From: an uncultured Candidatus Saccharibacteria bacterium
Lineage (GTDB): Bacteria > Patescibacteriota > Minisyncoccia > UBA6257 > 2-01-FULL-56-20
DNA: 64,000 nucleotides
Direction of reading: 5' to 3'
NCBI GenBank assembly: GCA_964484655.1
Contig: CAZAFA010000001.1
Coordinates: 97,518 to 161,517 of the forward strand
Every line of letters starts with the position of its first letter. The first letter of the stretch is position 1. Of this stretch, positions 931-27,390 are shown piece after piece. Made by a program: the position numbers and the translations under genes. Below the pieces are notes generated by a model, which made no database searches, was not told the origin of the DNA, and saw nothing but the letters and a program-made list of their open reading frames with translations.

Positions 931-960
931 GCAGGAGCGCCGCCGGAAGGCGGCGCTGCC

Positions 961-977
961 TTTATCGTCCCTTTATC
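961..977 (+). promoter_or_regulatory. Direct repeat TTTATC-N5-TTTATC, putative OmpR-family response-regulator box, 14 nt upstream of the HK start
   Basis: TTTATCgtcccTTTATC with 11-bp periodicity. The same box plus the following TCCG..TACGATG..CGCATG is repeated upstream of the response regulator at 13991-14031. Confidence 0.45.
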
Positions 978-990
978 TCCGGTTGATACG

Positions 991-2529
991 ATGATCCGCA
1001 TGGATCTCGTCGTCGGATTGGCAGTGAGCGCCTATGCCTTCGGCCTCGGCGTCTTCCTGCTCGCGCAGCGGGGCGGGGATGCGTTCCGCTTCGCCGGCGT
1101 GGCGTTCTCCTCGGGGGCGTACGTGCTCTCGCTGACGCTGCTGTTCTTCACCGAGCGCTTCGTCTTCAGTCATGCCGCGATCCTCTCGGGTGCCGCGACC
1201 TTGGCCGCGATCTTCCTCTTCTCGATCTCGTTCCGCCGCCAGCCGCGCCCCTGGGAGTACGCGCTCGCGCTGCCGCTCCTCGGTCTCGCCGCCGCCGACC
1301 TGTCGGGCGCTTTCGTCATCGGCATCCGGCACGGGCCGGACGGCATCGCGCCCGTGCACGGGCCGTACGCTCCGGCGCTCCTTCTCGTGACGCTCGGGTA
1401 CGCGCTCGCGAGCCTCGTGATGCTCTACCGGGCGCGCTATCGCTCACGCGGGCGCTGGCACCAGCAGGCGCGCTACGTATTCCTCGCGCTGCTGGTGCTC
1501 CTCGCGAGCATCCTCGCGTTCAACGTCGCCGCTCCGCTCCGCGGCATGGCCGACGCGAACATGATGACTGCGCTCAGTCTCCTCGCGTTCCTCGCCATAG
1601 TCACCTACGCGCTGACGCATCGCGGGCTCTTCTCGGCGCGGCTCCTGCTCACAGGCGCCACGGCCGCCGCGCTCGCCCCGGTCTGCGCGGCGCTCGGCAT
1701 CGGCGCAGGCTTCGCCTTCGTCGCGATCCTGCGGATCCCGCCGAGCGAGCCGGTGCTCCTGACCGTCGCAGCTCTGGGCGCCGCCGCCGGCATCGCCTTC
1801 GCCGAGACGATCAGGCCGAGGAGCGCGCTGTTCCTGCAGCGCGTGCTCGGCGACCGTCCGACGCATGGACAGGAAGCGGAGCGGCGGATGATCGCGGAGA
1901 TCGTGCACGACCTACAGACGCCGCTCGCGGTCCTGCGTACGGAGACCGAGGGAGCGGGGCTCGAGCCCTTGCCGCGCGCACGCGCGCTGCGCGCCGTCGA
2001 CGACTTGAGCGCGCGCATCCGCCGCCTCGCGGAATTCGCCCGCGCCGGCATGCCGGTCAGGCAGGCGGCGGAACCGGTCCGGCTGGACCGGATCGTCGCC
2101 GAGGTCGCCGAGTATGTCGGCGTGGTCGCAGCTGAGCGCGGCGTGCGTCTCGCGCTGGAGACCAATCAGGTCCGCGTACGCGGAAGGCGCGCGGACCTGG
2201 AGGCGCTCGTGACGAACCTGCTGAGCAACGCGCTCGAGCACGCGTCGCGCGGTACCGCGCCTCACGAGGTCTTCATCTCCTGCGGGAGCGAGCATGAGCA
2301 TGCGGTGCTTAAGGTAGGGGATACCGGTCCCGGGATGCCGGCAGCGGAGCGCGCACGCGCCTGCGAGCCGTTCTACCGGGCGCCGGGGACGCGAGGCAGC
2401 CCCGGCATGGGCCTCGGCCTCGCGATCGCGCGCCAGGTCGCCGTCGCGCACGGCGGCACGCTCGCTCTCGACGAGCGTCCCGGCGGCGGCCTGCTCGCGA
2501 CGGCGCGCCTGCCCGAGCTGGTACACTGA
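991..2529 (+). CDS. Sensor histidine kinase (multi-TM N-terminus, HisKA plus HATPase_c)
   Basis: Hydrophobic N-terminal half. The H-box EIVHDLQTPLAVL carries the phosphorylatable His and the G2 box is GMGLGLAIARQVAVAHGGTL. A second in-frame ATG at 1000 is an alternative start. Confidence 0.8.
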   Translation: MIRMDLVVGLAVSAYAFGLGVFLLAQRGGDAFRFAGVAFSSGAYVLSLTLLFFTERFVFSHAAILSGAATLAAIFLFSISFRRQPRPWEYALALPLLGLAAADLSGAFVIGIRHGPDGIAPVHGPYAPALLLVTLGYALASLVMLYRARYRSRGRWHQQARYVFLALLVLLASILAFNVAAPLRGMADANMMTALSLLAFLAIVTYALTHRGLFSARLLLTGATAAALAPVCAALGIGAGFAFVAILRIPPSEPVLLTVAALGAAAGIAFAETIRPRSALFLQRVLGDRPTHGQEAERRMIAEIVHDLQTPLAVLRTETEGAGLEPLPRARALRAVDDLSARIRRLAEFARAGMPVRQAAEPVRLDRIVAEVAEYVGVVAAERGVRLALETNQVRVRGRRADLEALVTNLLSNALEHASRGTAPHEVFISCGSEHEHAVLKVGDTGPGMPAAERARACEPFYRAPGTRGSPGMGLGLAIARQVAVAHGGTLALDERPGGGLLATARLPELVH

Positions 2530-2533
2530 GCCC

Positions 2534-3286
2534 ATGCCACGCACGTACGCCCTCCCTTCCACCGATCTCATGCTCAGCCATGCGCCGCAGCCGTACCGCA
2601 TCGCCGTCCGCGACCTCCCGCGCGAGGAGCGCCCGCGGGAGAGGCTCGTCGAGCGCGGCCCCCAGGAGCTGAGCATGGCCGAGCTGCTCGCCGTCGTCTT
2701 CGGCGTCGGCAGCAGGGGAGAGGAGGTCCTCGCGCTCAGCCACCGCATCCTGCGCGAGTACGGCGAGCGCGCCGTCACCGAGCAGCGCGACGCGCGCGTG
2801 CTCGCCGCGGCCGCGGATATCCCGCTCGGGAAGGCGGCGCAGCTGATCGCCTGCTTCGAGCTGGGGCGGAGGCTCTTCCGCGATCCCGCGCCGGGCGGGC
2901 AGCAGGTCATACTGCGCGGGATCGAGCAGGTGGTCGCGCACGTCGGTTCGATGCGCGGCCTCGCCAAGGAGCAGCTGCGCGGCCTCTACCTCAACGCGCA
3001 CTTCGGCGTCATCCACGAGGAGGTCCTCTCCGTCGGCACGCTCACCGGGAGCCTCGTGCATCCCCGCGAGGTCTTTCAGCCGGCGCTCGCGTACGGCGCT
3101 TCCGCGCTCATCCTCGTGCACAACCATCCCTCGGGCGTGGCGGAGCCGAGCGATGCCGATCTTGCCGTCACCGCCCAGATCGTCGCGGCCGGCCGCATCC
3201 TCGGCATCGCCGTGCTCGATCACGTGATCGTCACCAAGCACTCATTCACCAGCATCCCCGCATCCTACGATGAACCACAACCGTGA
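2534..3286 (+). CDS. radC: RadC-like JAB/MPN domain protein (UPF0758)
   Basis: C-terminal LILVHNHPSG...PS.AD JAMM motif at typical RadC length. Starts 5 nt after the HK stop. Confidence 0.8.
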   Translation: MPRTYALPSTDLMLSHAPQPYRIAVRDLPREERPRERLVERGPQELSMAELLAVVFGVGSRGEEVLALSHRILREYGERAVTEQRDARVLAAAADIPLGKAAQLIACFELGRRLFRDPAPGGQQVILRGIEQVVAHVGSMRGLAKEQLRGLYLNAHFGVIHEEVLSVGTLTGSLVHPREVFQPALAYGASALILVHNHPSGVAEPSDADLAVTAQIVAAGRILGIAVLDHVIVTKHSFTSIPASYDEPQP

Positions 3287-3560
3287 CTACCGCCTCTCGC
3301 CGGCGCTGCTCGTGACCGCCGACGGGTGGATCGCCCACTCGCTGCTCGTCCGTGACGAGCCGGTCTCTGCGCGCCGCCTCCGCGAGCATCTCGCCGCGGT
3401 ACATGCGCGCCTCGTCGACCGCCTCGGCGGCCTGGTCGAGCGTGAGACGGCGCCGCAGCGCCGCGAGGAGCGCGAGCTCCGCTTCATGCTCGACGAGCTC
3501 ATAGAGGCCCTCCACCGGCTCGCGGCGGAGCGCGATCCCGGATCCGACGTGGTATCCTGA
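3270..3560 (+). CDS. Hypothetical protein
   Basis: 96-aa ORF with strong third-position GC bias. It overlaps the radC end by 17 nt and has no recognisable domain. Confidence 0.35.
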   Translation: MNHNRDYRLSPALLVTADGWIAHSLLVRDEPVSARRLREHLAAVHARLVDRLGGLVERETAPQRREERELRFMLDELIEALHRLAAERDPGSDVVS

Positions 3561-3565
3561 TACCC

Positions 3566-4624
3566 ATGACAGCGCGCCGCGAAGCCCGCTTCCTCCTGTT
3601 CTCGCTGCTGGCGGTCGCCGCCCTCGTGGCGATGATCGTCCTGCCGTACGTGAACACGCTCACGCTCGCCGTGGTGCTCGGCATCGTGTTCTCGCCGCTC
3701 GCCGGACGCCTCCGGAAAGCCGTGCGGAGCGAAGCGCTCGCGGCTGGCCTGACGCTGCTGATCGCGCTCATCCTGGTCATCACGCCGCTCGCGTTCTTCG
3801 GCTACCAGGCGGGACAGGAGGCCTTCGGCCTCTACGAGCGGCTGACGCGCGACCACACGTTCGGGGAGCTGAGCACGGCCTCCCTGCCGCTGCAGCGCCT
3901 CACGGGCGCCCTTCCTGAGGGAATCCGCGGGCTCGTTCCCGAGACGCTCGACCTCGGTCCCATACTGCGATCGGCAGGCGCCTGGATCGTCGAGCGCGCC
4001 GGATCCCTGTTCGGGATCCTCACGAGCCTCGCCCTCGAGCTCTTCCTGCTGATCATCGGCACGTACTACGTCATCAAGGACGGGCGGCGCTTCGTGGACT
4101 ACCTGGTCGGCCTCGTGCCGCTCGAGGCTTCCTACGACCGCGTGCTCTTCGACAAGCTGCACGCGAGCGTGATCTCGGTCGTCCGCGGCGCGCTCGTCAT
4201 CGCCGTCATCCAGGGCGCGGCGGCGGGCCTCGGATTCTTCGTCTTCGGCGTCCCGAACGCGGCGCTCTGGGGAGCGGCGACGACCGTGGCCGCGCTCATC
4301 CCGATCGTGGGCACCTCGATCACGCTCGTGCCTGCCGTGGCCTACCTCGTGCTGACCGGCCAGCCCGTGCTCGCCGCATTCCTCGCGCTCTGGGGCGTCC
4401 TCATCGTGGGCCTCGTGGACAACTTCTTCCGCGGACAGGTCATGAAGCGGGGCATGGACATCCACCCGTTCTTCATCCTGCTCTCCGTGCTCGGCGGCCT
4501 CGAGTTCTTCGGGCCGATCGGCTTCATCTCCGGTCCGCTCCTGCTCTCGGTCCTCGTGGCGCTCCTCGACATCTACAAGAGCTTCAGGGGACGCCTTGAC
4601 GCGCCTGCTACACTGAACCCATGA
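3566..4624 (+). CDS. AI-2E family transporter (PerM/UPF0118-like permease)
   Basis: 352 aa, about 8 predicted TM helices, family-typical layout with a long loop containing ...YYVIKDGRRFVDYL... Confidence 0.7.
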   Translation: MTARREARFLLFSLLAVAALVAMIVLPYVNTLTLAVVLGIVFSPLAGRLRKAVRSEALAAGLTLLIALILVITPLAFFGYQAGQEAFGLYERLTRDHTFGELSTASLPLQRLTGALPEGIRGLVPETLDLGPILRSAGAWIVERAGSLFGILTSLALELFLLIIGTYYVIKDGRRFVDYLVGLVPLEASYDRVLFDKLHASVISVVRGALVIAVIQGAAAGLGFFVFGVPNAALWGAATTVAALIPIVGTSITLVPAVAYLVLTGQPVLAAFLALWGVLIVGLVDNFFRGQVMKRGMDIHPFFILLSVLGGLEFFGPIGFISGPLLLSVLVALLDIYKSFRGRLDAPATLNP

Positions 4625-4875
4625 AGCGCGTAACGATCTATACCACACACAACTGCCATTTCTGTCACCTGGCCAAGGAGTACTTCAAGCAGCACAACGT
4701 GCCCTACCAGGAGAAGGACGTGGAGACGGACGTCGCCGCGCAGCGCGAGATGATCGAGAAGACCGGCCAGTTCGGCGTGCCGGTCATCGAGCTCGCCGAG
4801 GAGGACGGGAGCAACCCGCAGTACGTGATCGGCTTCGAGCGCGAGCTCCTGGCTCGCGAGCTTTCCATCGCCTAG
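4621..4875 (+). CDS. Glutaredoxin-like/NrdH-like small redoxin
   Basis: 84 aa, N-terminal beta-strand then a CHFC (CxxC) active site, and GVP..IG later. The ATGA start overlaps the transporter stop by 4 nt. Confidence 0.7.
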   Translation: MKRVTIYTTHNCHFCHLAKEYFKQHNVPYQEKDVETDVAAQREMIEKTGQFGVPVIELAEEDGSNPQYVIGFERELLARELSIA

Positions 4876-4880
4876 GAGGC

Positions 4881-5222
4881 GTGGCGTTCCTGCCGCACGC
4901 CCGGAACCTGATCTGGACGGCGCACAGCCGTGACAAGATGCGCCAGTACCGTCTCGGTGAGGGGCGCATCCGGCGCATCCTCAACAGCCCGCACCGCGTC
5001 GAGGAGGGGATAGCGGAAGGCACCGTCGCGATGATGCAGCGGAGCGACGGCAAGAACCCGTACGAGCTCTGGGTGATGATCGTCGACGAGCAGAAGGGGC
5101 GGAAGGTGATCTCCGCCTGGCGCTACCCGGGCGTGACCGAGCCGCGGAACGAGCTGCCCGCAGCCGTGAAGCACGGCCTCCAGCGGGCTATCGAGGAGGC
5201 GCTTGGGGAAAACGGCGTTTGA
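4881..5222 (+). CDS. Hypothetical protein, possibly DUF4258-like
   Basis: 113 aa. The motif AHSRDKMRQYRLGEGRIRRIL resembles the H..R...R.I core of DUF4258 proteins. Assignment is weak. Confidence 0.4.
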   Translation: MAFLPHARNLIWTAHSRDKMRQYRLGEGRIRRILNSPHRVEEGIAEGTVAMMQRSDGKNPYELWVMIVDEQKGRKVISAWRYPGVTEPRNELPAAVKHGLQRAIEEALGENGV

Positions 5223-5246
5223 CACGCGTCAGGCCCGGCGTACCAT
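5219..5246 (+). promoter_or_regulatory. Sigma70-like promoter (TTGACA-16-TACCAT) overlapping the stop of the upstream gene
   Basis: TTGACA at 5219-5224, a 16-nt spacer, then TACCAT at 5241-5246. It would start a ~150-nt leader that ends at the terminator at 5374-5408. Confidence 0.35.
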
Positions 5247-5373
5247 TCCTGACATGGCGCAAGCCACCAATTCCCGCATCTGGTCCGTTACGTGCATGCA
5301 CGCAGTGTTTGCGCGTCTTTACGTATCCAGATAGCGGGAAGGTTTCGTCTACAGCATCCAACGTACCTGTACA

Positions 5374-5408
5374 CCTCCTCCCCGCATCGCGGGGAGGAGG
5401 TGTTTTTC
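5374..5408 (+). terminator. Rho-independent terminator or attenuator hairpin that sequesters the pepA SD
   Basis: 12-bp perfect stem CCTCCTCCCCGC/GCGGGGAGGAGG with a 3-nt loop, followed by TGTTTTTC. The GGAGG of the right arm is the only SD-like sequence before the pepA ATG at 5414. Confidence 0.6.
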
Positions 5409-5413
5409 ATCCC

Positions 5414-6865
5414 ATGACCATCACCCCCACCACAGAACCCGACGCTGACGCCGTGCCTGCCGTGATCCTCGCCGGCCCGGCGCCGGCGGGCGCGTTCGGC
5501 GCGGGCCGGCTCTCCAAGGCCGACGCCGCCTATCTCGCGACCGCGCTCGCCAGCGAGCACCGGCCCGACTTCGCGCGCCTGACGACGCTGCCGAGCGGCG
5601 CGCGCGCCATCGTGCTGCGCTCACGGAGCAAGCTGACGCACCGTGCGCTCATCCGCGCCGTGCGACGCGTCGTGCGCATCGCGCTCGAGGAGCGGATCCC
5701 GTCGATCGCGCTGCCGTTCGACGCCCTCGCCGCAGGGAGCGCCTACGCGCCGCCGCAGCTCGCCGAGGTCGTCGCGACGCAGGTCCTGCTGGCATCCTTC
5801 GACTACGTCGCGTACAAGGCGCCTCCCGCGGAGGGCTGGTTCGCGTTCGAGCGCGTCGCTCTGGTGACCCGGTTCCCGCGCAGGATCGCGCGAGCGGCCG
5901 AAGCCGGCGTGATCGTCGGCGAGGAGAGCAACGCGGCGCGGGCGCTCTCCAACACGCCGGGAGGGGACATGACGCCGGCGCTGCTCGCGGAGCACGCGAA
6001 GCGGCTCGCCCGCATCCCGGGCGTGCGCGTGAAGGTGCTGGACGCCGTTGCCATGGAGAAGCTCGGCATGGGCGGGGTGCTCGGCGTCGGGCGCGGATCG
6101 GCCGTGCCTCCGCGTTTCATCGTCGCGGAATACCGCGGCGGCGGCGATGCGGCGCCGACGGTCCTCGTCGGCAAGGGCGTCACCTTCGATACGGGCGGCA
6201 TCAACATCAAGGTGGCCGGCGCGAGCTACGAGATGCACCTCGACATGTCCGGCGGCGCCACGGTGCTGCACGCGCTTGCCGCGCTCGCGCGCATGAAGGC
6301 GAAGCGCAACGTCGTGGCGCTCGTGCCCGCGGTCGAGAACATGCCATCCGGCGAGAGCTACCGCCCCGGCGACCTCCTCAGGTCCCTCTCGGGCAAGACG
6401 ATCGAGGTGCTCAACACGGACGCCGAGGGACGGGTCATCCTCGCCGACGCGCTCACGTACGCGGAGCGGTACAAGCCGAGGGAGGTCGTCGACGTCGCGA
6501 CGCTGACCGGTGCCGCGGTCGTCTCGCTGGGCCTGCGCATGTCCGGGCTCTTCACCCCTGACGACGCCTTCGCGGACCGCCTCAGGGCGGCCGGCGACCT
6601 CGCGGGTGATCCCGTCTGGCGGCTTCCGCTCTGGGAGGAGCACGAGGGCGAAGTGAAGGGAACCTTCGGCGACGTCGCGAACATGGGCAAGCACAAGACG
6701 TACGGCGGCGCGATCGCGGGAGCGGCCTTCCTCTGGCAGTTCGCCAAGGCGTACCGCTGGGCGCATATCGACATCGCTCCACGCATGACCGCCATCGACG
6801 ACGAATGCCTCGGCAAGGGCTCGGTCGCGGCAGGGCTGCAGATGCTCGTCACGTACCTCCGCTAA
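5414..6865 (+). CDS. pepA: Leucyl aminopeptidase (M17 family)
   Basis: The C-terminal catalytic domain has VLVGKGVTFDTGG and the NTDAEGR signature. The ORF track extends to 5219, but that stretch contains the terminator hairpin, so the start is placed at the ATG at 5414. Confidence 0.85.
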   Translation: MTITPTTEPDADAVPAVILAGPAPAGAFGAGRLSKADAAYLATALASEHRPDFARLTTLPSGARAIVLRSRSKLTHRALIRAVRRVVRIALEERIPSIALPFDALAAGSAYAPPQLAEVVATQVLLASFDYVAYKAPPAEGWFAFERVALVTRFPRRIARAAEAGVIVGEESNAARALSNTPGGDMTPALLAEHAKRLARIPGVRVKVLDAVAMEKLGMGGVLGVGRGSAVPPRFIVAEYRGGGDAAPTVLVGKGVTFDTGGINIKVAGASYEMHLDMSGGATVLHALAALARMKAKRNVVALVPAVENMPSGESYRPGDLLRSLSGKTIEVLNTDAEGRVILADALTYAERYKPREVVDVATLTGAAVVSLGLRMSGLFTPDDAFADRLRAAGDLAGDPVWRLPLWEEHEGEVKGTFGDVANMGKHKTYGGAIAGAAFLWQFAKAYRWAHIDIAPRMTAIDDECLGKGSVAAGLQMLVTYLR

Positions 6866-6882
6866 TGCGGCGCGATGCATTT

Positions 6883-6910
6883 CCAGGGGAGCTCCCGCTG
6901 GCTCCCCTGG
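6883..6910 (+). terminator. GC-rich hairpin after pepA, no U-tract
   Basis: CCAGGGGAGC-tcccgctg-GCTCCCCTGG (10-bp stem) 18 nt after the pepA stop. Confidence 0.4.
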
Positions 6911-6992
6911 AAAGCTGACCCCTGCGAATGGACCCCGGTCGATTCAAGGGACGCAGCTTATACAAAGGAATAATGAGGAGAAGGAGAACGCC

Positions 6993-7199
6993 ATGAAGAA
7001 GAAGGAACTGCCAGGAGAGAAGCAGCGCCGCCGTGCCACGACGCGGCAGCATTCGGACGAGCACGCCGACCGCGGCGAGACCTACGAGGGCGCGACCGAG
7101 CGCGTGGACAGCATAGACGGCACCGGTGCCAGGAGCTCCGGCGGATCGAGCTTCGACGGGTCGGACAGCGGCTACGTCGGCGCGATGCTCGTCGGATGA
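6993..7199 (+). CDS. Small hydrophilic hypothetical protein (68 aa)
   Basis: Strong RBS AGGAGAAGGAGA 5 nt upstream of the ATG and coding-like third-position GC. Followed immediately by a terminator. Confidence 0.45.
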   Translation: MKKKELPGEKQRRRATTRQHSDEHADRGETYEGATERVDSIDGTGARSSGGSSFDGSDSGYVGAMLVG

Positions 7200-7203
7200 G
7201 AAG

Positions 7204-7230
7204 GAAGCAGCTACGGCTGCTTCTTCGTTG
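7204..7230 (+). terminator. Rho-independent terminator
   Basis: GAAGCAGC-tacg-GCTGCTTC followed by TTCTTCGTT, 5 nt after the stop. Confidence 0.55.
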
Positions 7231-7244
7231 TGCACACGAGCGGT

Positions 7245-7272
7245 TTGACTACGAGGGAAAGCGCGCGATAAT
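7245..7272 (+). promoter_or_regulatory. Orphan sigma70-like promoter TTGACT-16-GATAAT
   Basis: Near-consensus -35 and -10 with a 16-nt spacer and no obvious protein gene downstream before a terminator at ~7386. Confidence 0.45.
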
Positions 7273-7278
7273 GAGCGC

Positions 7279-7416
7279 ATCATGCGACGCATGCCCGCCT
7301 CCCGCTTCCAGGCCATCTGCTCGACGGCCATCTTCGCGACCCTTCGTCGCGGGCAGGGGACACGGTAGGAAGCGCGCTACTGAAACCCCCTGCCCGAACG
7401 GCAGGGGGTTTTCGTT
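7279..7416 (+). ncRNA. Candidate small RNA or small-ORF transcript (~135 nt) bounded by promoter and terminator
   Basis: Predicted TSS ~7279. The terminator is CCCCCTGCC-cgaac-GGCAGGGGG plus TTTTCGTT at 7386-7416. The only ORFs inside are 28-33 codons or read through the terminator. Confidence 0.3.
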
Positions 7417-7507
7417 CGCGGATTGGGATCGTGCCTCGCACTCCCCAGTCCGGGAAACCGGCTGGAGGACGCAGTTCTTTTATTTCAACTCGTAGGAGCA
7501 CGCACAT

Positions 7508-7723
7508 ATGACCGAAGCAACGAAGATTGGCGAGGAGCTATCGCCCATTACGAACGACCTGGACATCGATCCGTTCGGATCGACGTTCGACGCCCTGCAT
7601 GACTCGTCGGCAGGCAACCGGCGGTTCCGCCTCGGCGGAGCCCCGCCCAAGCGCGACCTGGACTCTCTCGCGGACGAGGAGCCACCAGAGAAGCGTTATA
7701 CCGGCAGCGATAGCTGGCGATGA
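7508..7723 (+). CDS. Small acidic hypothetical protein (71 aa)
   Basis: RBS TAGGAG 8 nt upstream, coding-like codon bias, terminator after the stop. Confidence 0.4.
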   Translation: MTEATKIGEELSPITNDLDIDPFGSTFDALHDSSAGNRRFRLGGAPPKRDLDSLADEEPPEKRYTGSDSWR

Positions 7724-7749
7724 GCGGATCCCCGCTCCCAATACAAATC

Positions 7750-7770
7750 AGGCACCTCAGTGCCTTTTTT
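7750..7770 (+). terminator. Rho-independent terminator
   Basis: AGGCAC-ctca-GTGCCT followed by TTTTTT. Confidence 0.6.
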
Positions 7771-7784
7771 GTTACGCGCGGTGC

Positions 7785-7793
7785 TGTTAGGAT
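7785..7793 (+). promoter_or_regulatory. Extended -10 (TGtTAGGAT) 9 nt upstream of the ychF ATG; leaderless-type promoter
   Basis: TG-n-TAGGAT at 7785-7793 and ATG at 7803. The same TGcTAGGAT sits 6 nt before the hpf ATG. Confidence 0.4.
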
Positions 7794-7802
7794 GGCCCGG
7801 CA

Positions 7803-8798
7803 ATGAAGCTATCTATCGGCATCGTCGGCCTCCCGAACGTGGGCAAGTCCACGCTCTTCAAGGCGCTCACCAAACAGGACATCGTCGTCGCGAACTACCC
7901 CTTCGCCACCATCGACCCGAACGTCGGCATCGTGAGCGTTCCCGACGAGCGCCTGGACGCGCTCGCGGCGATGAGCCAGTCCAGGAAGAAGGTTCCCGCC
8001 ATCGTCGAGTTCTACGACATCGCGGGCCTCGTGAAGGGCGCGTCCGCAGGCGAGGGTCTCGGGAACCAGTTCCTGACCCACATCCGCGAGACGGACGCGG
8101 TCGCTTTCGTGCTGCGCGTCTTCCAGGACGACGGCATCCACCACGTGGAGGGCACCGTGGACCCGGTACGCGATCTCGAGGTCATCGAGACCGAGCTCAT
8201 GCTCAAGGATCTCGAGACGGTCACGAAGCGTCACGCCTCGCTCGAGAAGGAGGCGAAGGCAGGCCTGCCCGGCGCGCGCGAGCAGCTCGCCGCCCTCGAG
8301 AAGGCCAAGGAGGCGCTCGAGGCGGGGCAGTGGCTGACGGAGTTCTCCGGCGAGGAGGCGGTGCGCGGACTGCAGCTGCTCTCCGCGAAGCCGCGCCTGT
8401 TCGTGATCAACGGCACCGAGGACGAGATCCCCGACGCGCTGCGCGACGCGGTCGCCGCGCGCGGCGGCGAGATGGTCGTCCTCGACCTCGCGGGCGAGCC
8501 CGACCTCGCGCCCCTGATCCGGAACGCGTACCGCATGCTCGGCCTCGCGAGCTTCTTCACCACCGGCGAGGACGAGACGCGCGCGTGGACGATCCGCGCG
8601 GGAGCGCTCGCGCCCGAGGCGGCCGGCGCGATCCATTCCGACTTCCAGGCGAAGTTCATCCGCGCCGAGGTCGTCTCCGCGAAGGACCTCCTCGAGCAGG
8701 GGAGCTGGAGCAAGGCGAAGGGCAAGGGCCTCGTCCGCCTCGAGGGCAAGGAGTACGCGGTCCAGGACGGGGACGTCCTCGTCGTCCGGCACGGGTAG
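7803..8798 (+). CDS. ychF: Redox-regulated ATPase YchF (Obg-family GTPase/ATPase with TGS domain)
   Basis: G1 motif GIVGLPNVGKSTLF, NxxE-type specificity region and a C-terminal TGS domain (...GKEYAVQDGDVLVVRHG). Confidence 0.85.
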   Translation: MKLSIGIVGLPNVGKSTLFKALTKQDIVVANYPFATIDPNVGIVSVPDERLDALAAMSQSRKKVPAIVEFYDIAGLVKGASAGEGLGNQFLTHIRETDAVAFVLRVFQDDGIHHVEGTVDPVRDLEVIETELMLKDLETVTKRHASLEKEAKAGLPGAREQLAALEKAKEALEAGQWLTEFSGEEAVRGLQLLSAKPRLFVINGTEDEIPDALRDAVAARGGEMVVLDLAGEPDLAPLIRNAYRMLGLASFFTTGEDETRAWTIRAGALAPEAAGAIHSDFQAKFIRAEVVSAKDLLEQGSWSKAKGKGLVRLEGKEYAVQDGDVLVVRHG

Positions 8799-8827
8799 TT
8801 GACTTTCCCGTCAAACTGCGCTATAGT
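8799..8827 (+). promoter_or_regulatory. Strong sigma70-like promoter TTGACT-17-TATAGT directly after the ychF stop
   Basis: Near-consensus boxes. The -35 context TTGACTTTCCC is also found at 33150. No protein gene follows. Confidence 0.5.
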
Positions 8828-8833
8828 CCCATC

Positions 8834-8921
8834 CGGATGAGTGAAAGTGCATGTTATTAATGTGTCACTAGCTCCTCTGCTTGGCACCACGGCCCCCGCA
8901 AGGGGGCCGTGGTGTTCCTTT
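8834..8921 (+). ncRNA. Candidate small RNA (~90 nt) ending in a 13-bp GC hairpin with a GCAA loop
   Basis: Predicted TSS ~8834. The terminator-like hairpin CACCACGGCCCCC-gcaa-GGGGGCCGTGGTG is followed by TTCCTTT. The only ORF inside is 7 codons. Confidence 0.3.
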
Positions 8922-8942
8922 ACCCTCCCTTGAAACCGGTTC

Positions 8943-9093
8943 TGATATACTCGTGGAAGGTCTTTCGCAGGAGCGTTGCGAGCGGGTGTGATGCGAGCAC
9001 TCATCTACCACAAGCAGACGGAGGTCCACCCGTCACACTCGCTCGGAACGCTGCTGAAGGAGAACGCGCCGTCATGATGACGGCGCGTTCTCC
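8943..9093 (+). ncRNA. Second candidate structured RNA downstream of an extended -10 (TGaTATACT)
   Basis: Extended -10 at 8943-8951. A 13-bp long-range helix (8979-8991 with 9033-9045, one G.U pair) is followed by a perfect 35-nt palindrome GGAGAACGCGCCGTCATGATGACGGCGCGTTCTCC at 9059-9093. No plausible ORF. Confidence 0.3.
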
Positions 9094-9228
9094 GTTCCGA
9101 TGCGCGATGCGCGCGCGTGTATGACGCGATCATGCGCATCGCATGATCATGAAAAAAAGTTTTCGCGCATGTCGCGATGCAGTTATCCACACGTTCGCGC
9201 GCATGCCGTTTACTACAATTAGATACAA

Positions 9229-9243
9229 GAACGTGCAACGTTC
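9229..9243 (+). promoter_or_regulatory. Operator-like palindrome GAACGT-gca-ACGTTC upstream of the histone-like gene
   Basis: Perfect 6-bp inverted repeat with a 3-bp spacer, 55 nt upstream of the ATG at 9298. The region also carries repeated GCGCATG motifs and a 9-bp-stem hairpin at 9128-9148. Confidence 0.3.
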
Positions 9244-9297
9244 TCGTCGGATGCAATCCATAGTCGACAACCGACGTCACACACCACACTTGCTTCC

Positions 9298-9483
9298 ATG
9301 GCCAAGAAAGCAGCACGCAAGTCCACGAAGAAGACCGTGAAGCGGGCTTCGAAGAAGACTGTGAAGAAGGCGGCGAAGAAGACCGTGAAGAAGGCGGCGA
9401 AGAAGACCACGAAGAAGGCTTCCCGCAAGACCGCTAAGAAGTCCACGAAGAAGGCTTCGAAGAAGACGGCCCGCCGTCGCTAA
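9298..9483 (+). CDS. Histone H1-like Lys/Ala-rich DNA-binding protein (tandem KKTVKKAAK repeats)
   Basis: 61-aa protein made of KK(T/A)VKKA(A/S)KK repeats, encoded by tandem ~30-nt nucleotide repeats. It resembles bacterial H1-like/HupB C-terminal tails. Confidence 0.6.
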   Translation: MAKKAARKSTKKTVKRASKKTVKKAAKKTVKKAAKKTTKKASRKTAKKSTKKASKKTARRR

Positions 9484-9503
9484 GTACGACATTACCCACT
9501 TAC

Positions 9504-9531
9504 GCAAAGCCCCCGATTCCGGGGGCTTTGC
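9504..9531 (+). terminator. GC-rich terminator hairpin
   Basis: GCAAAGCCCCCG-attc-CGGGGGCTTTGC, a 12-bp stem 20 nt after the stop. No U-tract. Confidence 0.5.
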
Positions 9532-9570
9532 GCGTCTGCGGCCGGCCGACCGACCTGCTAGGATAGGGGT

Positions 9571-9903
9571 ATGAAGACCTCAATCCACTACGAGAACGTC
9601 GATCGCTCGCCGGCCCTGGAGGACCTCATACAGGGGAAGATGGCATCCGTGGCGACCATCCTCGCGGCCTACGACGCGGACGACGCCGTAGCCTGCAACG
9701 TGACGGTTGAGCGCGCCACCGGCCACCACCACGGCGACGTGTACGCCGTCCGCGCGACCGTCGAGGTGAACGGTACGGTCCTGACCGCCCATGCGACCGG
9801 CGACGACCCGTACAAGCTCGCCGACGAGGTGCGCGACACGCTCCACGGCGCCGTCCAGCGCTTCAAGGAGCAGGACGTTGCGCGCCGCCACGCCGAGGGC
9901 TAA
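9571..9903 (+). CDS. hpf: Ribosome hibernation promoting factor / RaiA family (short form)
   Basis: 110 aa. N-terminal ...IHYENVDRSPALEDLIQGKM and C-terminal DDPYKLADEVRDTLHGAVQRFKE match the HPF/YfiA beta-alpha-beta fold family. TGcTAGGAT sits 6 nt upstream of the ATG. Confidence 0.65.
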   Translation: MKTSIHYENVDRSPALEDLIQGKMASVATILAAYDADDAVACNVTVERATGHHHGDVYAVRATVEVNGTVLTAHATGDDPYKLADEVRDTLHGAVQRFKEQDVARRHAEG

Positions 9904-9926
9904 GCTCACGCGGCACATCTCCTCAC

Positions 9927-12506
9927 GTGATACGGATCATCCGCAATATTTTCGACCGCAAGGCGCTCGCCGGCTACCGGAAGCGCCTGGTGCCGATCGC
10001 AGACCTCGAGCCCGAGCTCCAGGAGCTCGCCGACGCGGCGATCACCGAGCGCAGCCTCGCGCTCCGCGACAAGCTCCGGTCCGGGGCCCTGTCCGTCGAC
10101 GAGGCCATGCCGGAAGCGTTCGCGCTCGCCCGCGAGGCGGCCCGGCGCACGCTCGGGCAGCGCCCGTACGACGTCCAGCTCATCGGCGGCATCGTGCTCT
10201 ATGAAGGAGGGATCGCCGAGATGGGAACCGGAGAGGGAAAGACCCTCGCGGGCGTGGCCCCGGCCTACCTGCATGCCCTGACCGGGCGCGGCGTCCACAT
10301 GGTCACGGTCAACGAGTACCTGGCCCGCCGCGACGCCGTCTGGATGGGCCAGATCTACCGCCTGCTGGGCCTCTCGGTCGCGTGCCTCGTCCCCGAGGCG
10401 GCCTTCGTCTACGACGCGGACTTCAAGGGCGAGGAGAACGCCGAAGAGGACCGCGACGAGACGGGCGGCTTCAAGGTGCACCAGGAGTTCCTGCGCCCGG
10501 TCTCGCGCCGCGAGGCCTACCTCGCCGACGTGACCTACGGCACGAACCACGAGTTCGGCTTCGACCATCTCCGGGACAACCTCCAGTACCGCGCCGAGAT
10601 GCAGGTCCAGCGCCCGCACTACTTCGCGATCATCGACGAGGCTGACAGCATCCTCATCGACGAGGCGCGCACCCCGATGATCATCTCCGCGCCGGACCGG
10701 GAGAGCAGCGAGATGTATCGCACCTTCGCGAGCATCGCGCGCCGCCTGCAGCGCGACACGCACTACGAGGTCGACGAGAAGTACAAGGCGGTCACCATGA
10801 TGCCGGAGGGCATCGAGGAGGTGGAGCGCATCCTCGGCATCGCGAACCTCTACGCGCCGGAGAACGTCCGCCTCGTCCGCTACCTCGACGAGGCGCTCAA
10901 GGCGGAGTCCCTCTTCATCAAGGATCGCGAGTACGTCGTCCGCGAGGGCGAGATCCTCATCGTGGACGAGTTCACGGGCCGCATCCTCGCCGGGCGCCGC
11001 TACAGCGGGGGACTGCACCAGGCCATCGAGGCCAAGGAGGGCGTGAAGGTGAAGGAGGAGAGCCGCACGTACGCGAAGATCTCCGTCCAGAACTACTTCC
11101 GCCTCTACGAGCGGATCTCCGGCATGACCGGCACCGCCGAGACCTCCGCCGAGGAATTCCACAAGGTGTACGGCCTGCCCGTCGTCTCCGTGCCGCCGCA
11201 CCGCCCGGTGGTGCGCCAGGACCTGCCGGACCTCGTCTACAAGAGCCGCGAGATCAAGTACCGCGCCATCGCGGCGGACGTGAAGGAGCGGCACGAGAAG
11301 GGCCAGCCGGTCCTCATCGGCACGACCTCGATCGAGAAGAACGAGGAGCTCTCCGCGTATCTCGATCGCGCCGGCATCCCGCACAGCCTCCTCAACGCCA
11401 AGAACAACGAGAAGGAGGGTGCGACGATCGCGCAGGCCGGCCGCAAGGGCGCCGTCACCGTCGCCACGAACATGGCCGGCCGCGGCGTCGACATCATCCT
11501 GGGCGGCAACCCGTCCACGAAGGAGGAGGGGGACGAGGTCCGCGCGCTCGGCGGCCTGCATGTGATCGGCACGGAGCGGCACGACTCGCGCCGCGTGGAC
11601 AACCAGCTCCGCGGCCGCGCCGGACGCCAGGGCGACCCGGGATCCTCGCAGTTCTTCCTCTCCCTCGACGACGACCTCATGCGCATCTTCGGCGGGGACC
11701 GCATCAAGGGCCTCATGGAGCGGTTCAACCTCCCCGAGGACGAGCCGATCCAGATGGCCATGGTCACGCGCGCCATCGCGGAGGCCCAGTCGAAGGTCGA
11801 GGGGTACCACTTCGACAGCCGCAAGCGCGTCATGGAGTACGACGACGTGCTCAACAAGCAGCGCGCGGCCGTCTACGCGAAGCGCCAGCAGCTGGTCGAC
11901 TCGCGCACCGGCGAGGACGTCGCGCGCGAGGTCGGCGAGGCGGCCCGCGCCTTCCTCGACCGGGTCCTCGGCAAGGACGGCGTGGTGCCGGACGGCAGCG
12001 AGCCGCTTGCCGAGCTCCAGAAGCTCTTCGCCGAGGCGGGCATCACCGACGCGGAGCATCCATGGCCGGAAGGGCACGTCGACGTGGCGCACCTGCAGGA
12101 CCTCATCGACCACCGCAGCGCCCACGCCGCGACCGATCCGCAGACCCTCGGCCGCCTGCTCGGCATCCTCGACCAGCTCTGGATGACCCACCTCGAGGAT
12201 CTCGAGGACCTGGATCAGAACGTGCGCCTGCGCGGCTACGCCCAGCGCGACCCGCTCGTCGAGTTCCGGCGCGAGGCTTCCGAGTACTACGAGCGCATGT
12301 GGAGCAACTACGAGGAGTGGGTCTTCATGAACGCCATCCGCCTCGCGCAGCCCGGCGATCCCGCCGCTGCGTTCGAGCTCCCGCAGCAGAACGCGCCGAA
12401 GGCCGCCGAGCTCGACGACCCGAAGTTCCAGAACGTCGGCCGCAACGATCCCTGTCCGTGCGGCAGCGGCAAGAAGTTCAAGAAGTGCCATGGCGCAGGA
12501 CTCTAG
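9927..12506 (+). CDS. secA: Preprotein translocase ATPase SecA
   Basis: 859 aa with DEAD-like motor motifs, Walker A MGTGEGKTL, and a C-terminal zinc finger CPCGSGKKFKKCHG. GTG start. Confidence 0.95.
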   Translation: MIRIIRNIFDRKALAGYRKRLVPIADLEPELQELADAAITERSLALRDKLRSGALSVDEAMPEAFALAREAARRTLGQRPYDVQLIGGIVLYEGGIAEMGTGEGKTLAGVAPAYLHALTGRGVHMVTVNEYLARRDAVWMGQIYRLLGLSVACLVPEAAFVYDADFKGEENAEEDRDETGGFKVHQEFLRPVSRREAYLADVTYGTNHEFGFDHLRDNLQYRAEMQVQRPHYFAIIDEADSILIDEARTPMIISAPDRESSEMYRTFASIARRLQRDTHYEVDEKYKAVTMMPEGIEEVERILGIANLYAPENVRLVRYLDEALKAESLFIKDREYVVREGEILIVDEFTGRILAGRRYSGGLHQAIEAKEGVKVKEESRTYAKISVQNYFRLYERISGMTGTAETSAEEFHKVYGLPVVSVPPHRPVVRQDLPDLVYKSREIKYRAIAADVKERHEKGQPVLIGTTSIEKNEELSAYLDRAGIPHSLLNAKNNEKEGATIAQAGRKGAVTVATNMAGRGVDIILGGNPSTKEEGDEVRALGGLHVIGTERHDSRRVDNQLRGRAGRQGDPGSSQFFLSLDDDLMRIFGGDRIKGLMERFNLPEDEPIQMAMVTRAIAEAQSKVEGYHFDSRKRVMEYDDVLNKQRAAVYAKRQQLVDSRTGEDVAREVGEAARAFLDRVLGKDGVVPDGSEPLAELQKLFAEAGITDAEHPWPEGHVDVAHLQDLIDHRSAHAATDPQTLGRLLGILDQLWMTHLEDLEDLDQNVRLRGYAQRDPLVEFRREASEYYERMWSNYEEWVFMNAIRLAQPGDPAAAFELPQQNAPKAAELDDPKFQNVGRNDPCPCGSGKKFKKCHGAGL

Positions 12507-13002
12507 GCCGCTCCTGATCGCGACCATCGGCTGCCCGGGCTCAGGCAAGAGCTACCTCTCCGCCCTGCTCGCAGCCGACCTGCGCGCCGCGCACCTGCGC
12601 AGCGACGACTTCCGCTTCTGGCTCTTCGAGGAGCCGACGTTCTCGTCAGAGGAGCATGCAGCCGTGTTCGGGCTCATGGACAACATCGCCGAGAAGCTCC
12701 TCTCGACCGGCGTGTCCGTGGTCTACGACGCCAACTTCAACTTCAAGCGCCATCGCGACGCCGCCCGGCGCCTCGCGGAGCGGTACGGGGCGCAGTTCGT
12801 GCTCCTGTACGTCGACACGCCGCTCGAGGTAGCGATCGAGCGCGCGGCGAACCGTGCCACGCACCAGCTTACGCGCGAAACGGTGGAGCAGATGAGCGCG
12901 GAGATCGAGTCATTCCACGACGAGGGCGCGATCCACGTCGACGGAACCCTCTCGTACGAGGACCAGCGCGACGAGCTCCTCGCGCGCATCGACCGGGGTT
13001 AG
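12490..13002 (+). CDS. P-loop kinase-like ATPase (AAA_33/zeta-toxin-like fold)
   Basis: N-terminal Walker A GCPGSGKS, at 170 aa typical of small nucleotide/polynucleotide kinase-like proteins. Overlaps the secA end by 17 nt. Confidence 0.55.
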   Translation: MAQDSRPLLIATIGCPGSGKSYLSALLAADLRAAHLRSDDFRFWLFEEPTFSSEEHAAVFGLMDNIAEKLLSTGVSVVYDANFNFKRHRDAARRLAERYGAQFVLLYVDTPLEVAIERAANRATHQLTRETVEQMSAEIESFHDEGAIHVDGTLSYEDQRDELLARIDRG

Positions 13003-13003
13003 G

Positions 13004-13477
13004 ATGCCGGACATCCACGAGCGCATGGCCGAGATCGCCGAGGGGATCTTCGGCACCGAGGCCGATCCGGACCAGATCCCGATCACCGACGAGTCCCGGG
13101 CCAAGCTCGATACGCTCACGCCGCACTGGTTCCGCCACCGCCTCGACGAGAGCGGGGAGCCGATCGCCTGGGTCGTGGTGGTGCCGACGGACCGCGACCT
13201 CGCGGAAGCCTTCCTGCGGGGCGAGATCCCCGAGCGCGCGCTCCTCGACCGCGCGGAGCCGCGGGAGCGCTATGACGCGCTCTACCTGTGCGCGGCGATC
13301 ACCGTTCCCGGTCACCGGCGCAAGGGACTCGCCACGACGCTCTTCCAGGAGGCGTTGGAGGCTATCCCGCATACGGAGGACTGCCTCCTCTTCACCTGGC
13401 TCTACAGCGAGGACGGCCGGACCGCGTTCGCGTCCGCCGAGCGCAAGCTCGGGCGGCCCATCCGCGCCCGTACCTGA
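13004..13477 (+). CDS. GNAT-family acetyltransferase-like protein
   Basis: Motif-A-like segment AAITVPGHRRKGLATTLFQEAL (R-x-x-G-x-A acetyl-CoA loop) at ~157 aa. Confidence 0.45.
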   Translation: MPDIHERMAEIAEGIFGTEADPDQIPITDESRAKLDTLTPHWFRHRLDESGEPIAWVVVVPTDRDLAEAFLRGEIPERALLDRAEPRERYDALYLCAAITVPGHRRKGLATTLFQEALEAIPHTEDCLLFTWLYSEDGRTAFASAERKLGRPIRART

Positions 13478-13480
13478 CCC

Positions 13481-13990
13481 ATGCGCGTCTTCGTCGCCCT
13501 CGCCCTCCCGCCCGAGCTCGTCGCGGCAGTCTTGCGCTACCAGGAGCTCCTCAAGGATGTCCCCGGCGTGCGTCTCCTCGACGCAGAGGGCCTGCACGCG
13601 ACGGTCATACCGCCGTGGGACGAGCGCGATCCCGATGCGGTGCTGCGCGACTTCGCCGCGATCGACAGCGGTCCGCTGACGCTCCGATTCGACCAGGCGT
13701 CCGTCCGTACCGACCCCGGCAAGCCGGGCCTCGGCGGCCTCCTCTGGCTGGGCGCGACCGCGACGCCCGAGACGCGCAGCCTCTGGCTGCAGGCCTGGCG
13801 TGCGCTCATGAGCCAGGACCCGCCGCGCCCGCCGCTGCCGCACGCGACGGTGGCGCGCTTCCCGCACGACGCGGCGCTGCCGGAGCTGACGCCGCTCGAG
13901 CCGCTGACCGTCGCGCTCGACCGGCTGTGCCTGTACGAGAGTCAGGGCGACCTCCGCTACCGCGTCGTCGGCGAGCGGCGCCTCGGCTAG
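13481..13990 (+). CDS. thpR: RNA 2',3'-cyclic phosphodiesterase (2H phosphoesterase, LigT/ThpR)
   Basis: Two H-x-T-x motifs (LHATVIP and PHATVARF) at LigT-typical spacing. Confidence 0.7.
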   Translation: MRVFVALALPPELVAAVLRYQELLKDVPGVRLLDAEGLHATVIPPWDERDPDAVLRDFAAIDSGPLTLRFDQASVRTDPGKPGLGGLLWLGATATPETRSLWLQAWRALMSQDPPRPPLPHATVARFPHDAALPELTPLEPLTVALDRLCLYESQGDLRYRVVGERRLG

Positions 13991-14007
13991 TTTATGGAGC
14001 CTTTATC
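13991..14007 (+). promoter_or_regulatory. Direct repeat TTTATG-N5-TTTATC, second copy of the putative response-regulator box
   Basis: Same half-sites and 11-bp periodicity as 961-977. The following 25 nt also closely match the HK upstream sequence. Confidence 0.45.
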
Positions 14008-14028
14008 TCCGAGGAGTACGATGTGCGC

Positions 14029-14700
14029 ATGCGCATCCTTCTGGTAGAGGACGAGCCGAGCATCGCGGCGTACCTTGCCAAGCGCCTCGAGGAACAGAGC
14101 TTCGTCGTCGACCGCGCTGAGGACGGCGCAGAGGGCTCCTTCCTCGGGCGCACGAACGAGTACGATCTCGTCATCCTCGACAACCTGCTCCCCAAGAAGC
14201 TCGGCATAGACGTGGTGCGCGACCTGCGCAGCCGCGGCAAGACGATGCCGATCCTCATGCTGTCGGTCCGGGGCGACGTCGAGACGAAGGTCGAGCTCCT
14301 CAACGCAGGCGCCGACGATTACCTCGCCAAGCCCTTCTCCTTCGACGAGCTGCTGGCGCGCATCGGCGCGCTGCTCAGGCGGCCGCCGCACGTGACCAAG
14401 CCCGTGCTCAAGGTCGCCGACCTCATGCTCAACGAGGCGACGCACGAGGTCCGCCGCGGCGGGAAGGAGATAAGCCTGACGCGCAAGGAGTTCTCGCTGC
14501 TGCGCTACCTGATGCGCAACGCCTCGGTCGTGCTCTCGCGCGGCCTGCTGCTCGAGCACGTCTGGAATATCGACATGGACCCGTTCTCGAACACGGTGGA
14601 AGCGCACATCGCGAGCCTGCGCCGCAAGGTGGACGCGCCGTTCGGCAAGAAGCTCATCAAGACGGTCCTCGGCAGGGGATACAAGATATCCGCGCGTTGA
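14029..14700 (+). CDS. OmpR/PhoB-family response regulator (REC plus winged-helix)
   Basis: MRILLVEDEP...DLVILD...K, then a C-terminal trans_reg_C with RRGGKEISLTRKEFSLLRYL and GRGYKI. An alternative GTG start at 14023 has better spacing to the GAGGAG at 14011-14016. Confidence 0.85.
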   Translation: MRILLVEDEPSIAAYLAKRLEEQSFVVDRAEDGAEGSFLGRTNEYDLVILDNLLPKKLGIDVVRDLRSRGKTMPILMLSVRGDVETKVELLNAGADDYLAKPFSFDELLARIGALLRRPPHVTKPVLKVADLMLNEATHEVRRGGKEISLTRKEFSLLRYLMRNASVVLSRGLLLEHVWNIDMDPFSNTVEAHIASLRRKVDAPFGKKLIKTVLGRGYKISAR

Positions 14701-15224
14701 AGTCCCTACCACAGCTACTAGCACCGCGAGAACGGACGTTCTGCTCGATCGACTTCGGCAACGTCAATCGCTGGTTCGTCCGCGACGGACTTGAGATTGA
14801 CTTAGCCGGTCTCGCCGCCTGCGCTTCATCGCTCGCTGCTCGCACGAATTTCTATTACGGGCATGATGCGCAGAAGCCGGGATCGCTGGCATTCCTTAGC
14901 CAGACGCGCTTGCATTTCGGACGTTCTCGCGTCATCACGAAGCCGATCCAGAAGATAGCCACTGCCTCCGGCCAGCCGATTCTCAAGGCGAACTTCGATG
15001 TCGAGATAGCTGTCGATGCGATGAGGCTCATGGAGCATTATGATGCTTTCGTACTCTTATCCGGCGATGCCGATTTCGCCTACCTGCTCAAGAGGCTGCG
15101 CGAGGCAGGAAAGAAGACGATTCTGATCAGGAAGGGATACATCGCGTATGCCTTGCGTGATGCCGCAGATCTCGTCCTTGATGCTGCTGACTTCGCAGAA
15201 TCCATAACTAGACCGCCCCGCTGA
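14697..15224 (+). CDS. NYN-domain protein (LabA-like predicted RNase)
   Basis: DVEIAVDAMRL...DAFVLLSGDADFAYLLKRLREAGKKT matches the NYN/PIN-like acidic core. Confidence 0.7.
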   Translation: MKSLPQLLAPRERTFCSIDFGNVNRWFVRDGLEIDLAGLAACASSLAARTNFYYGHDAQKPGSLAFLSQTRLHFGRSRVITKPIQKIATASGQPILKANFDVEIAVDAMRLMEHYDAFVLLSGDADFAYLLKRLREAGKKTILIRKGYIAYALRDAADLVLDAADFAESITRPPR

Positions 15225-24890: not shown

Positions 24891-24917
24891 ATAAAGACCG
24901 TGCATTACGGCACGGTC
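24891..24917 (-). terminator. Rho-independent terminator (minus-strand orientation) at the left edge of the low-GC block
   Basis: GACCGTGC-attacg-GCACGGTC followed on the minus strand by TTTAT. It sits just downstream of the minus-strand ORF ending at 24944. Confidence 0.5.
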
Positions 24918-24943
24918 ATCATCGGGATTACGTACCCCGGTCT

Positions 24944-26889: not shown

Positions 26890-26903
26890 GGGTTGTTAAA
26901 TTA

Positions 26904-27371: not shown

Positions 27372-27390
27372 ATTCGGCCATAACAATATT

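Follow-up and report, generated by a model that had tools for sequence, protein, structure and literature searches.

A histidine kinase (HK) gene and a response regulator (RR) gene of the OmpR/PhoB family, located 13 kb apart in the DNA of an uncultured Candidatus Saccharibacteria bacterium, are each preceded by the same direct repeat of two TTTAT half-sites, placed one helical turn upstream of a -10 hexamer. The analysed DNA (hereafter the window) comprises 64,000 nucleotides of GenBank assembly GCA_964484655.1 (contig CAZAFA010000001.1, positions 97,518 to 161,517); positions are counted from its first letter, and loci of related genomes are designated by L numbers. With a probability of roughly 0.7, these are activator-type promoters of one two-component system (TCS) with separated genes, in which the phosphorylated RR (RR~P) would bind the box and activate both. 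An autoregulated pair with a common regulator box had been proposed from the letters of the window (here referred to as the sequence-only reading), and a footprint over 15 orthologous promoters now supports it.

A direct repeat shared by the kinase and regulator promoters

Read directly, the sequence upstream of the HK gene (site A) is 960 CTTTAT-cgtcc-CTTTAT-ctccggttga-TACGAT-gatccgc-ATG 1002, and that upstream of the RR gene (site B) is 13990 GTTTAT-ggagc-CTTTAT-ctccgaggag-TACGAT-gtgcgc-ATG 14031. The direct repeat of site A (box A, 960..976, plus strand) lies at -40..-24 from the A of ATG 1000, counted as +1, with half-sites at -40..-35 and -29..-24, and scores 28.1 with the position weight matrix (PWM) used here. 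That of site B (box B, 13990..14006, plus strand) lies at -39..-23 from the A of ATG 14029, scores 21.7, and begins immediately 3' of the stop codon of a LigT-like gene. At both sites one TTTAT core follows the other at an interval of exactly 11 bp, as the sequence-only reading had noticed, and the box lies 10 bp upstream of TACGAT, which in turn precedes ATG by 6-7 nt. Two details of that reading need correction: the gap between TACGATG and CGCATG is 3 nt (HK) or 2 nt (RR) and not 4-5 nt, and the HK gene starts at ATG 1000 and not at 991, since its orthologues all begin with M-(E/D/Q)-L/Y at the aligned ATG.

The likeness of the two upstream segments stands out from the rest of the window. 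When the -45..+3 regions of 61 window genes were aligned locally in all 1830 pairs, the HK/RR pair ranked first, with a score of 22 against a mean of 6.9 (standard deviation 1.8). The 12-mer CCTTTATCTCCG has just two copies in the window (970-981 and 14000-14011), and within it the identity extends beyond the half-sites (CC...CTCCG). Exact matches to TTTATS-N5-TTTATC are boxes A and B only, and exact matches to TTTATCTC-N7-TACGAT are likewise the HK and RR sites only. The similarity ends at ATG, i.e., no coding sequence is held in common, and the spacers have diverged; a short duplicated segment that includes coding sequence, which the sequence-only reading had named as a possible cause, was therefore not found. 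A relaxed regular expression and a PWM scan of the window gave no further box at the strength of the training sites. A near-match at 52763 was dropped because it has neither the first half-site nor a nearby -10 element, and the beginning of an open reading frame (ORF) called at 52096-52680 overlaps with a relaxed minus-strand match at 52112.

Conservation of the box in related genomes

Orthologous loci were found by exact-protein look-ups and one genome scan, which provided a footprint set of 15 promoters (seven of HK and eight of RR orthologues) from about nine genomes. Their common layout is [C]TTTA[T]-N5-[C]TT[C/A/T]AT-N10-TAnnAT-N6-8-ATG. Eight bases of the 17-column matrix are invariant in 15/15 promoters, namely, positions 2-5 (TTTA), 13-14 (TT), and 16-17 (AT), and an invariant column holds 2.18 bits; in the N5 spacer, one column holds 0.97 bits and the other four do not exceed 0.28. 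The 11-bp phasing of the half-sites is kept in every one of the 15. The OmpR/PhoB-type direct-repeat architecture, which the sequence-only reading had seen at two sites, is thus recovered throughout the set, with half-sites that are fixed and spacers that are free. The distance from box to -10 element is 10 bp in 12 of the 15 sites (9 or 11 in the other three), and that from -10 element to start codon is 6-8 nt in 14. When the HK and RR sites of the same genome are compared, 10-11 of 12 half-site positions agree, in contrast to only 1-2 of 5 and 4-5 of 10 positions in the two spacers, which argues for selection on a protein-binding site and not for recent duplication.

When both strands of 211 kb of clade DNA were scanned with the PWM (listing threshold 14), all matches scoring at least 21.3, the lowest score of a training site, were HK/RR promoters with one exception. 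The search for further boxes, suggested in the sequence-only reading as a way to define a regulon, thus added none of training strength in the window and a single site in the relatives. This site, in L169 (10672-10800), is TTTTAT-aaagt-TTTCAT with a score of 21.9; it is situated directly 3' of the RR stop codon and before radC. It appears to be the remnant of an HK promoter, or else to control radC, and gives a hint of how the pair came apart. In L170 (3214-3577), CTTTAA-gttgt-GTTAAT is followed after N10 by TATGAT and after N7 by the leaderless ATG of a 110-aa protein that appears coiled-coil by eye. The window holds no homologue of this gene, which may be a lineage-specific regulon member.

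The box is retained while the neighbourhood changes. Upstream of the HK box, the neighbours are rpsP-KH (window, L171, L173), a Mur ligase gene (L172), or def (L174), and the box of the RR orthologues is likewise retained in genomes with different neighbours. The synteny rpsP-KH-HK-radC-...-ychF-...-hpf-secA-...-ligT-RR is kept in L002, L082/L083, L085/L171, L168, and L172. A YchF-centred genome scan returned 80 Paceibacterota loci, among which L002 alone keeps the HK...RR synteny, and a metagenome scan with the RR protein found only paralogues of at most 51% identity, one back-translated peptide having been too generic. The closest relatives of RR and YchF are found in metagenome-assembled genomes of Patescibacteria/Candidatus Paceibacterota.

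Promoter elements and predicted leaderless starts

The HK promoter has an extended -10 element, TGaTACGAT (984..992, plus strand), whose hexamer lies 10 bp 3' of the box and 6-8 nt 5' of ATG. The -10 hexamer of the RR promoter, TACGAT (14017..14022, plus strand), is without the TG extension and is placed 6 nt before the RR start codon in seven of the eight orthologues. This distinction is strict in the footprint set, i.e., the TGn extension is present in 7/7 HK promoters and 0/8 RR promoters (Fisher p = 1.6e-4). No sigma-70 -35/-10 pair was called at the HK site, and none of the eight RR promoters has a -35 hexamer or a TG extension. Since canonical -35/-10 promoters such as TTGACT-N17-TATAGT (8799-8827) exist in the same genome, it is meaningful that the HK promoter has no -35 hexamer.

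A -10 element near the start codon is widespread in the window. TANNNT occurs 5-9 nt before the start codon in 17 of 61 window genes (28%), compared with 1.2% of random positions (p = 5e-19), and Shine-Dalgarno-like motifs are not enriched before window genes (18% vs 14%). Many genes have TGnTAnnnT before their start, e.g., at 2520-2536, 3552-3568, 4607-4623, 9557-9573, 38499-38518, and 42756-42773. This pattern suggests widespread leaderless mRNAs with extended -10 promoters, some of them inside the preceding gene. Accordingly, TACGAT...ATG at the HK and RR sites would be a generic -10 element plus leaderless start, and only the direct repeat, which is present in 0/15 of the other window promoters with TANNNT 5-9 nt before the start codon, is TCS-specific. 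The sequence-only reading had treated the repeat, TACGATG, and CGCATG as one shared element; the repeat remains as its specific part, and TACGATG and CGCATG are ruled out as regulator contacts. It had also placed the box where the -35 element of a short-leader transcript would be. The position holds (-40..-24, with no -35 hexamer), whereas the HK and RR transcripts are probably leaderless, with transcription start sites that are predicted from the promoter layout.

A second start may be available to the RR. The motif AGGAG is located 6 nt upstream of GTG 14023 (within 14012-14031), which is in frame and two codons before ATG 14029, and the database copy of the RR (P0001, 225 aa) starts at this GTG. 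The motif is not conserved among RR orthologues. A read-through transcript from ligT could use this Shine-Dalgarno-led start.

Leaderless promoters of Actinobacteria and Deinococcus also have their -10 element a few nucleotides upstream of the start codon. The window resembles them in its TANNNT 5-9 nt upstream of ATG/GTG in 28% of genes and differs in its host, a member of the Patescibacteria (Paceibacterota). A literature search gave no paper on leaderless transcription in Patescibacteria and none on Patescibacteria promoters.

The kinase and the regulator as a putative cognate pair

The HK gene (1000..2529, plus strand) encodes Pfam domains HisKA_7TM (a weak match to the seven-transmembrane, 7TM, sensor kinase family), HisKA, and HATPase_c, and the H-box and the glycine motifs of the kinase domain can be read by eye in its translation. 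The RR gene (14029..14700, plus strand) encodes Response_reg with an intact receiver and Trans_reg_C; its nearest solved structure is Thermotoga DrrD (1kgs), and an identical protein is present on a Logan contig from SRR11845634. The start of an NYN-domain gene identified by Pfam (14697..15224, plus strand) overlaps the RR stop codon, an arrangement that is repeated in L172, and this gene is probably co-transcribed with the RR gene.

Several observations point to a cognate pair, although the genes are separated. There is no other HK or RR within the window. The HK family is narrow (eight orthologues in a database search), and the genomes of the five traced HKs (window, L002, L082/L083, L171/L085, and L172) also carry an RR orthologue of 73-100% identity. 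In two more distant, Liptonbacteria-like members of the Parcubacteria (L175 and L177), the gene order on one strand is RR, ThiF/E1-like gene, 190-aa gene, HK; their RRs are 61-64% identical to that of the window, and the alignment of the L177 HK with that of the window spans the entire protein, 7TM domain included (26% identity, E 5e-51). This linkage of the same two families provides independent support for the pairing made in the sequence-only reading, and phosphotransfer from this HK to this RR is predicted. The ThiF-like and 190-aa genes have no homologues in the window or the clade loci. The L175 RR promoter reads TTTTAA-N5-CTTGAA-N10-TATGCT, and the thiF-like promoter of L175 (6679-6784) reads CTTCAT-N5-CTTTAA-N5-TTTAAC-N10-TATCGT, i.e., three half-sites phased at 11 bp. 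The RR gene of L169 and L170 has radC and a 90-aa gene directly after it, both of which come after HK in the window. Taken together, these observations suggest that an ancestral linked system was broken up and that the HK and RR genes each retained or gained a box promoter of their own.

Neither protein could be assigned to a named system. The RR scored 189 bits against the PhoB equivalog model TIGR02154 (cut-off 296) and 129 bits against the KdpE model NF007820 (cut-off 325); the HK scored 86 bits for PhoR (TIGR02966, cut-off 334) and 55 bits for KdpD (cut-off 1123). For CusR, OmpR, or any other named regulator, no NCBIfam cut-off was reached by the RR.

Comparison with known regulator boxes

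Three known boxes are informative in comparison. In Escherichia coli, Pho boxes are tandem direct repeats 10 bp upstream of a TAN3T -10 element (PMC1906773), and KdpE half-sites are TTTATA/TTTACA with 5 bp between them (PMC3264566), while the Pho boxes of cyanobacterial SphR are 8-bp direct repeats, CTTAACCT, of which SphR requires at least three (PMC1906773). The window boxes resemble those of PhoB (phoBR, pstS) in having repeats in 11-bp phase that lie 10 bp before a TAnnnT -10 element and replace the -35 element (PMC1906773), in belonging with an OmpR/PhoB-family RR, and in the predicted presence of the TCS genes in their own regulon. They differ in the half-site, which is (C)TTTAT here and not the published consensus (PMC1906773). 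Furthermore, the sensor here is a 7TM HK, the PhoB and PhoR cut-offs are unmet, HK and RR do not share an operon, their transcripts are predicted to be leaderless, and no box-bearing pst genes were seen.

With the KdpE site of kdpFABC, geometry and T-T-T-A core are nearly equal to (C)TTTAT-N5-(C)TTNAT. Unlike in that system, the RR here is no KdpE equivalog and a KdpD-type kinase is absent; among the annotated window ORFs, no kdp genes were seen. The KdpE site also lies further upstream of its promoter and does not abut the -10 element. The cores of the SphR boxes resemble the CTTAAT half-site 2 of the L002 and L083 RR promoters; in contrast to SphR, two repeats suffice here (a third is present only upstream of the thiF-like gene of L175), and no phosphate-uptake genes are associated. 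Judged by sequence, the box is therefore pho-box-like in position and KdpE-like in its half-sites, and the proteins are neither PhoB/PhoR nor KdpE/KdpD. Autoregulated OmpR/PhoB-type activation from a direct repeat beside the -10 element is a textbook mechanism; the case is unusual, not unprecedented, in that the promoters match while the genes are unlinked, the transcripts are predicted to be leaderless, and the host belongs to the Patescibacteria.

Proposed mechanism and alternative explanations

From the features above, we infer that the RR is the protein that binds the box, that its binding activates transcription, and that the HK phosphorylates this RR. In the proposed sequence of events, the 7TM kinase would phosphorylate the OmpR-family regulator, which would then dimerise head-to-tail so that the two half-sites are read, from one face of the DNA, by its pair of winged-helix domains. 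Bound at -40..-24, RR~P would recruit or stabilise RNA polymerase, in a PhoB-like manner, at a promoter that lacks a -35 hexamer; positive autoregulation of the HK and RR genes would result. The parts of such a promoter would be (C)TTTAT-N5-(C)TT(T/A/C)AT, TAnnAT one helical turn (10 bp) downstream, and a start codon 6-8 nt further on. The HK promoter probably has activator-independent basal activity because of its TGn extended -10 element, and the RR promoter, which has no such extension, should be more dependent on the activator or on read-through from upstream (ligT).

Some observations weigh against this reading. The box was found essentially at TCS genes only (two strong sites in 64 kb, and the 211 kb of relatives), and a different factor may conceivably co-regulate the HK and RR genes. 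A protein at -40..-24 of an HK promoter with an extended -10 element could equally repress. A GC-rich hairpin, AGCGCCGCC-ggaa-GGCGGCGCT (936..957, plus strand), follows the KH-domain gene and abuts half-site 1 of the HK box; because its T-run is short, the terminator rule did not call it. Hairpins of this kind are also present before the HK box of L002, L171, L172, and L173, and five of the seven HK promoters have one directly 5' of half-site 1, whose T-richness could partly be a terminator tail. No hairpin is present between the ligT stop codon and box B. In a genome of 68% GC, AT-rich tracts could also be under selection because they bend the DNA or have UP-like effects. The spacing of box and -10 element deviates by 1 bp in either direction in three RR promoters, and the L169 RR has its ATG 17 nt from the -10 element, with an out-of-frame ATG at 6 nt; by this layout, its transcript is not strictly leaderless.

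The main rival, though unlikely, is that the RR binds the box and represses, i.e., negative autoregulation by occlusion of the -35 region, at least at the HK promoter. All seven HK promoters have TGn-TAnnnT, promoters with a TGn extended -10 element can function without a -35 contact, and the box overlaps -40..-24. The RR promoters speak against repression, as all eight, having neither -35 hexamer nor TG, show the activator-dependent pho-type layout with the box 10 bp before the -10 element (PMC1906773). It is quite unlikely that the repeat is read by another transcription factor, or that it is a lineage-specific general promoter or UP-like element of leaderless genes, even though it is an AT-rich element in a GC-rich genome and the box scan covered part of the genome. 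The repeat is absent from the 15 other window promoters with a TANNNT hexamer, and the matches of at least 21.3 in 211 kb are all at HK/RR promoters except for the L169 site (21.9). Moreover, the 6+5+6 geometry is the signature of an OmpR/PhoB winged-helix dimer (PMC3264566, PMC1906773), and the box stays upstream of the RR orthologues when their neighbours change.

That the similarity is merely historical, the promoter segment having been copied when an ancestral RR-HK operon was split, or homogenised by gene conversion, with no shared regulatory role, is very improbable. The window identity does extend past the half-sites (CC...CTCCG, in the 12-mer), and the L169/L170 order of RR, radC, and the 90-aa gene, with the latter two following HK in the window, suggests a past rearrangement. 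A neutral copy should nevertheless decay evenly, yet the half-sites are invariant in 15 promoters while the spacers are randomised; in other genomes, the HK and RR sites have only the half-sites in common, and the similarity includes no coding sequence. Activation of both genes by RR~P thus remains the preferred explanation.

A possible weak third box and a putative two-piece small RNA locus

An unannotated locus between ychF and hpf (window 8799-9095) is predicted to encode two small RNAs. Small RNA a (8799..8915, plus strand) has the promoter TTGACT-N17-TATAGT at 8799-8827, an RNA of ~50 nt (8836-8886), and a GC-hairpin terminator. Small RNA b (8968..9056, plus strand) is a conserved long hairpin of ~90 nt with a terminator at about 9059-9092. 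Counterparts of the locus are located at L002:10994-11285, L083:5710-5998, L085:5577-5872, L168:2687-2972, L172:15902-16190, L169:4727-5040, L170:3587-3927, and L054:6370-6587. The stem pairs of RNA b covary (alignment and RNAalifold), its folding z-score is -7.7, and covariance-model matches were obtained in L169, L170, and L054. Complementarity to the apical part of RNA b is seen in two segments of RNA a, and changes on the two sides compensate one another in three Paceibacterota lineages, i.e., UCUGCUUGG with CCAAGCAGA in the window clade, GCCUGUUGG with CCAACAGGC in L169 and L170, and AAUUCUU with AAGAAUU in L054. Cognate a:b pairs reach -20 to -29 kcal/mol in RNAduplex, and cross-lineage pairs -15 to -21. 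No Rfam family matched RNAs a and b at gathering or permissive thresholds, and identities as signal recognition particle RNA, 6S RNA, hammerhead, RNase P, or two-piece transfer-messenger RNA were rejected, as the core motifs of these RNAs were absent or not conserved (by eye or ARAGORN).

Upstream of RNA b there is a possible, uncertain third box, CTTTAC-cctcc-CTTGAA, followed after N11 by TGaTATACT (8918..8951, plus strand). The T-tail of the RNA a terminator extends into half-site 1 of this box. Its orthologues score 18-19 in L083, L085, and L172, again with N11 before TGnTATACT; the sites of L002 and L169 are poor, and those of L168 and the window itself fall short of the listing threshold (14). 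It is doubtful, though conceivable on this evidence, that the box is not purely autoregulatory and that the only visible TCS of the window controls the two-piece a/b RNA between ychF and the ribosome-hibernation gene hpf.

Other features of the window

The GC content of the window is 64-72% except in one island. In this low-GC island (~24900-29100), GC falls to 0.43, compared with 0.64-0.72 elsewhere, and the ORFs have low GC at third codon positions and no Pfam matches; the island may be foreign DNA. A tRNA-Lys gene (30918-30991) lies just past it. A single perfect DnaA box, TTATCCACA (9183-9191, within 9149-9483), is conserved in all relatives, with an A/T tract upstream and a TACAAT promoter plus a leader of ~80 nt downstream. 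It is followed by the gene of a 61-aa lysine-rich basic protein (9298-9483) with KKTVKKAAKK repeats and no Pfam match. One box in 64 kb is no more than expected by chance, and this region is probably not the replication origin (oriC). Cumulative GC skew drops steadily from the first letters of the window to about 56 kb and then climbs (~55000-56500), and near this turn the gene orientation flips from mostly plus to mostly minus; the turn may represent a replication origin or terminus.

Implications

Members of the Patescibacteria (Candidate Phyla Radiation) cannot be grown alone. For one such member, the locus offers a concrete, testable cis-regulatory code, with a position-specific box for one of the few two-component systems that such small genomes possess. 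The locus is also an example of a kinase-regulator pair that is kept in step by matching promoters after gene separation, as well as evidence for many leaderless mRNAs from extended -10 promoters in this lineage. If the third box is real, a two-piece RNA that had not been described before would be under the control of a two-component system in a reduced genome. The box matrix could be used to predict the regulon in any complete genome of the clade, and would thereby open a route to the signal that is perceived by the 7TM sensor.

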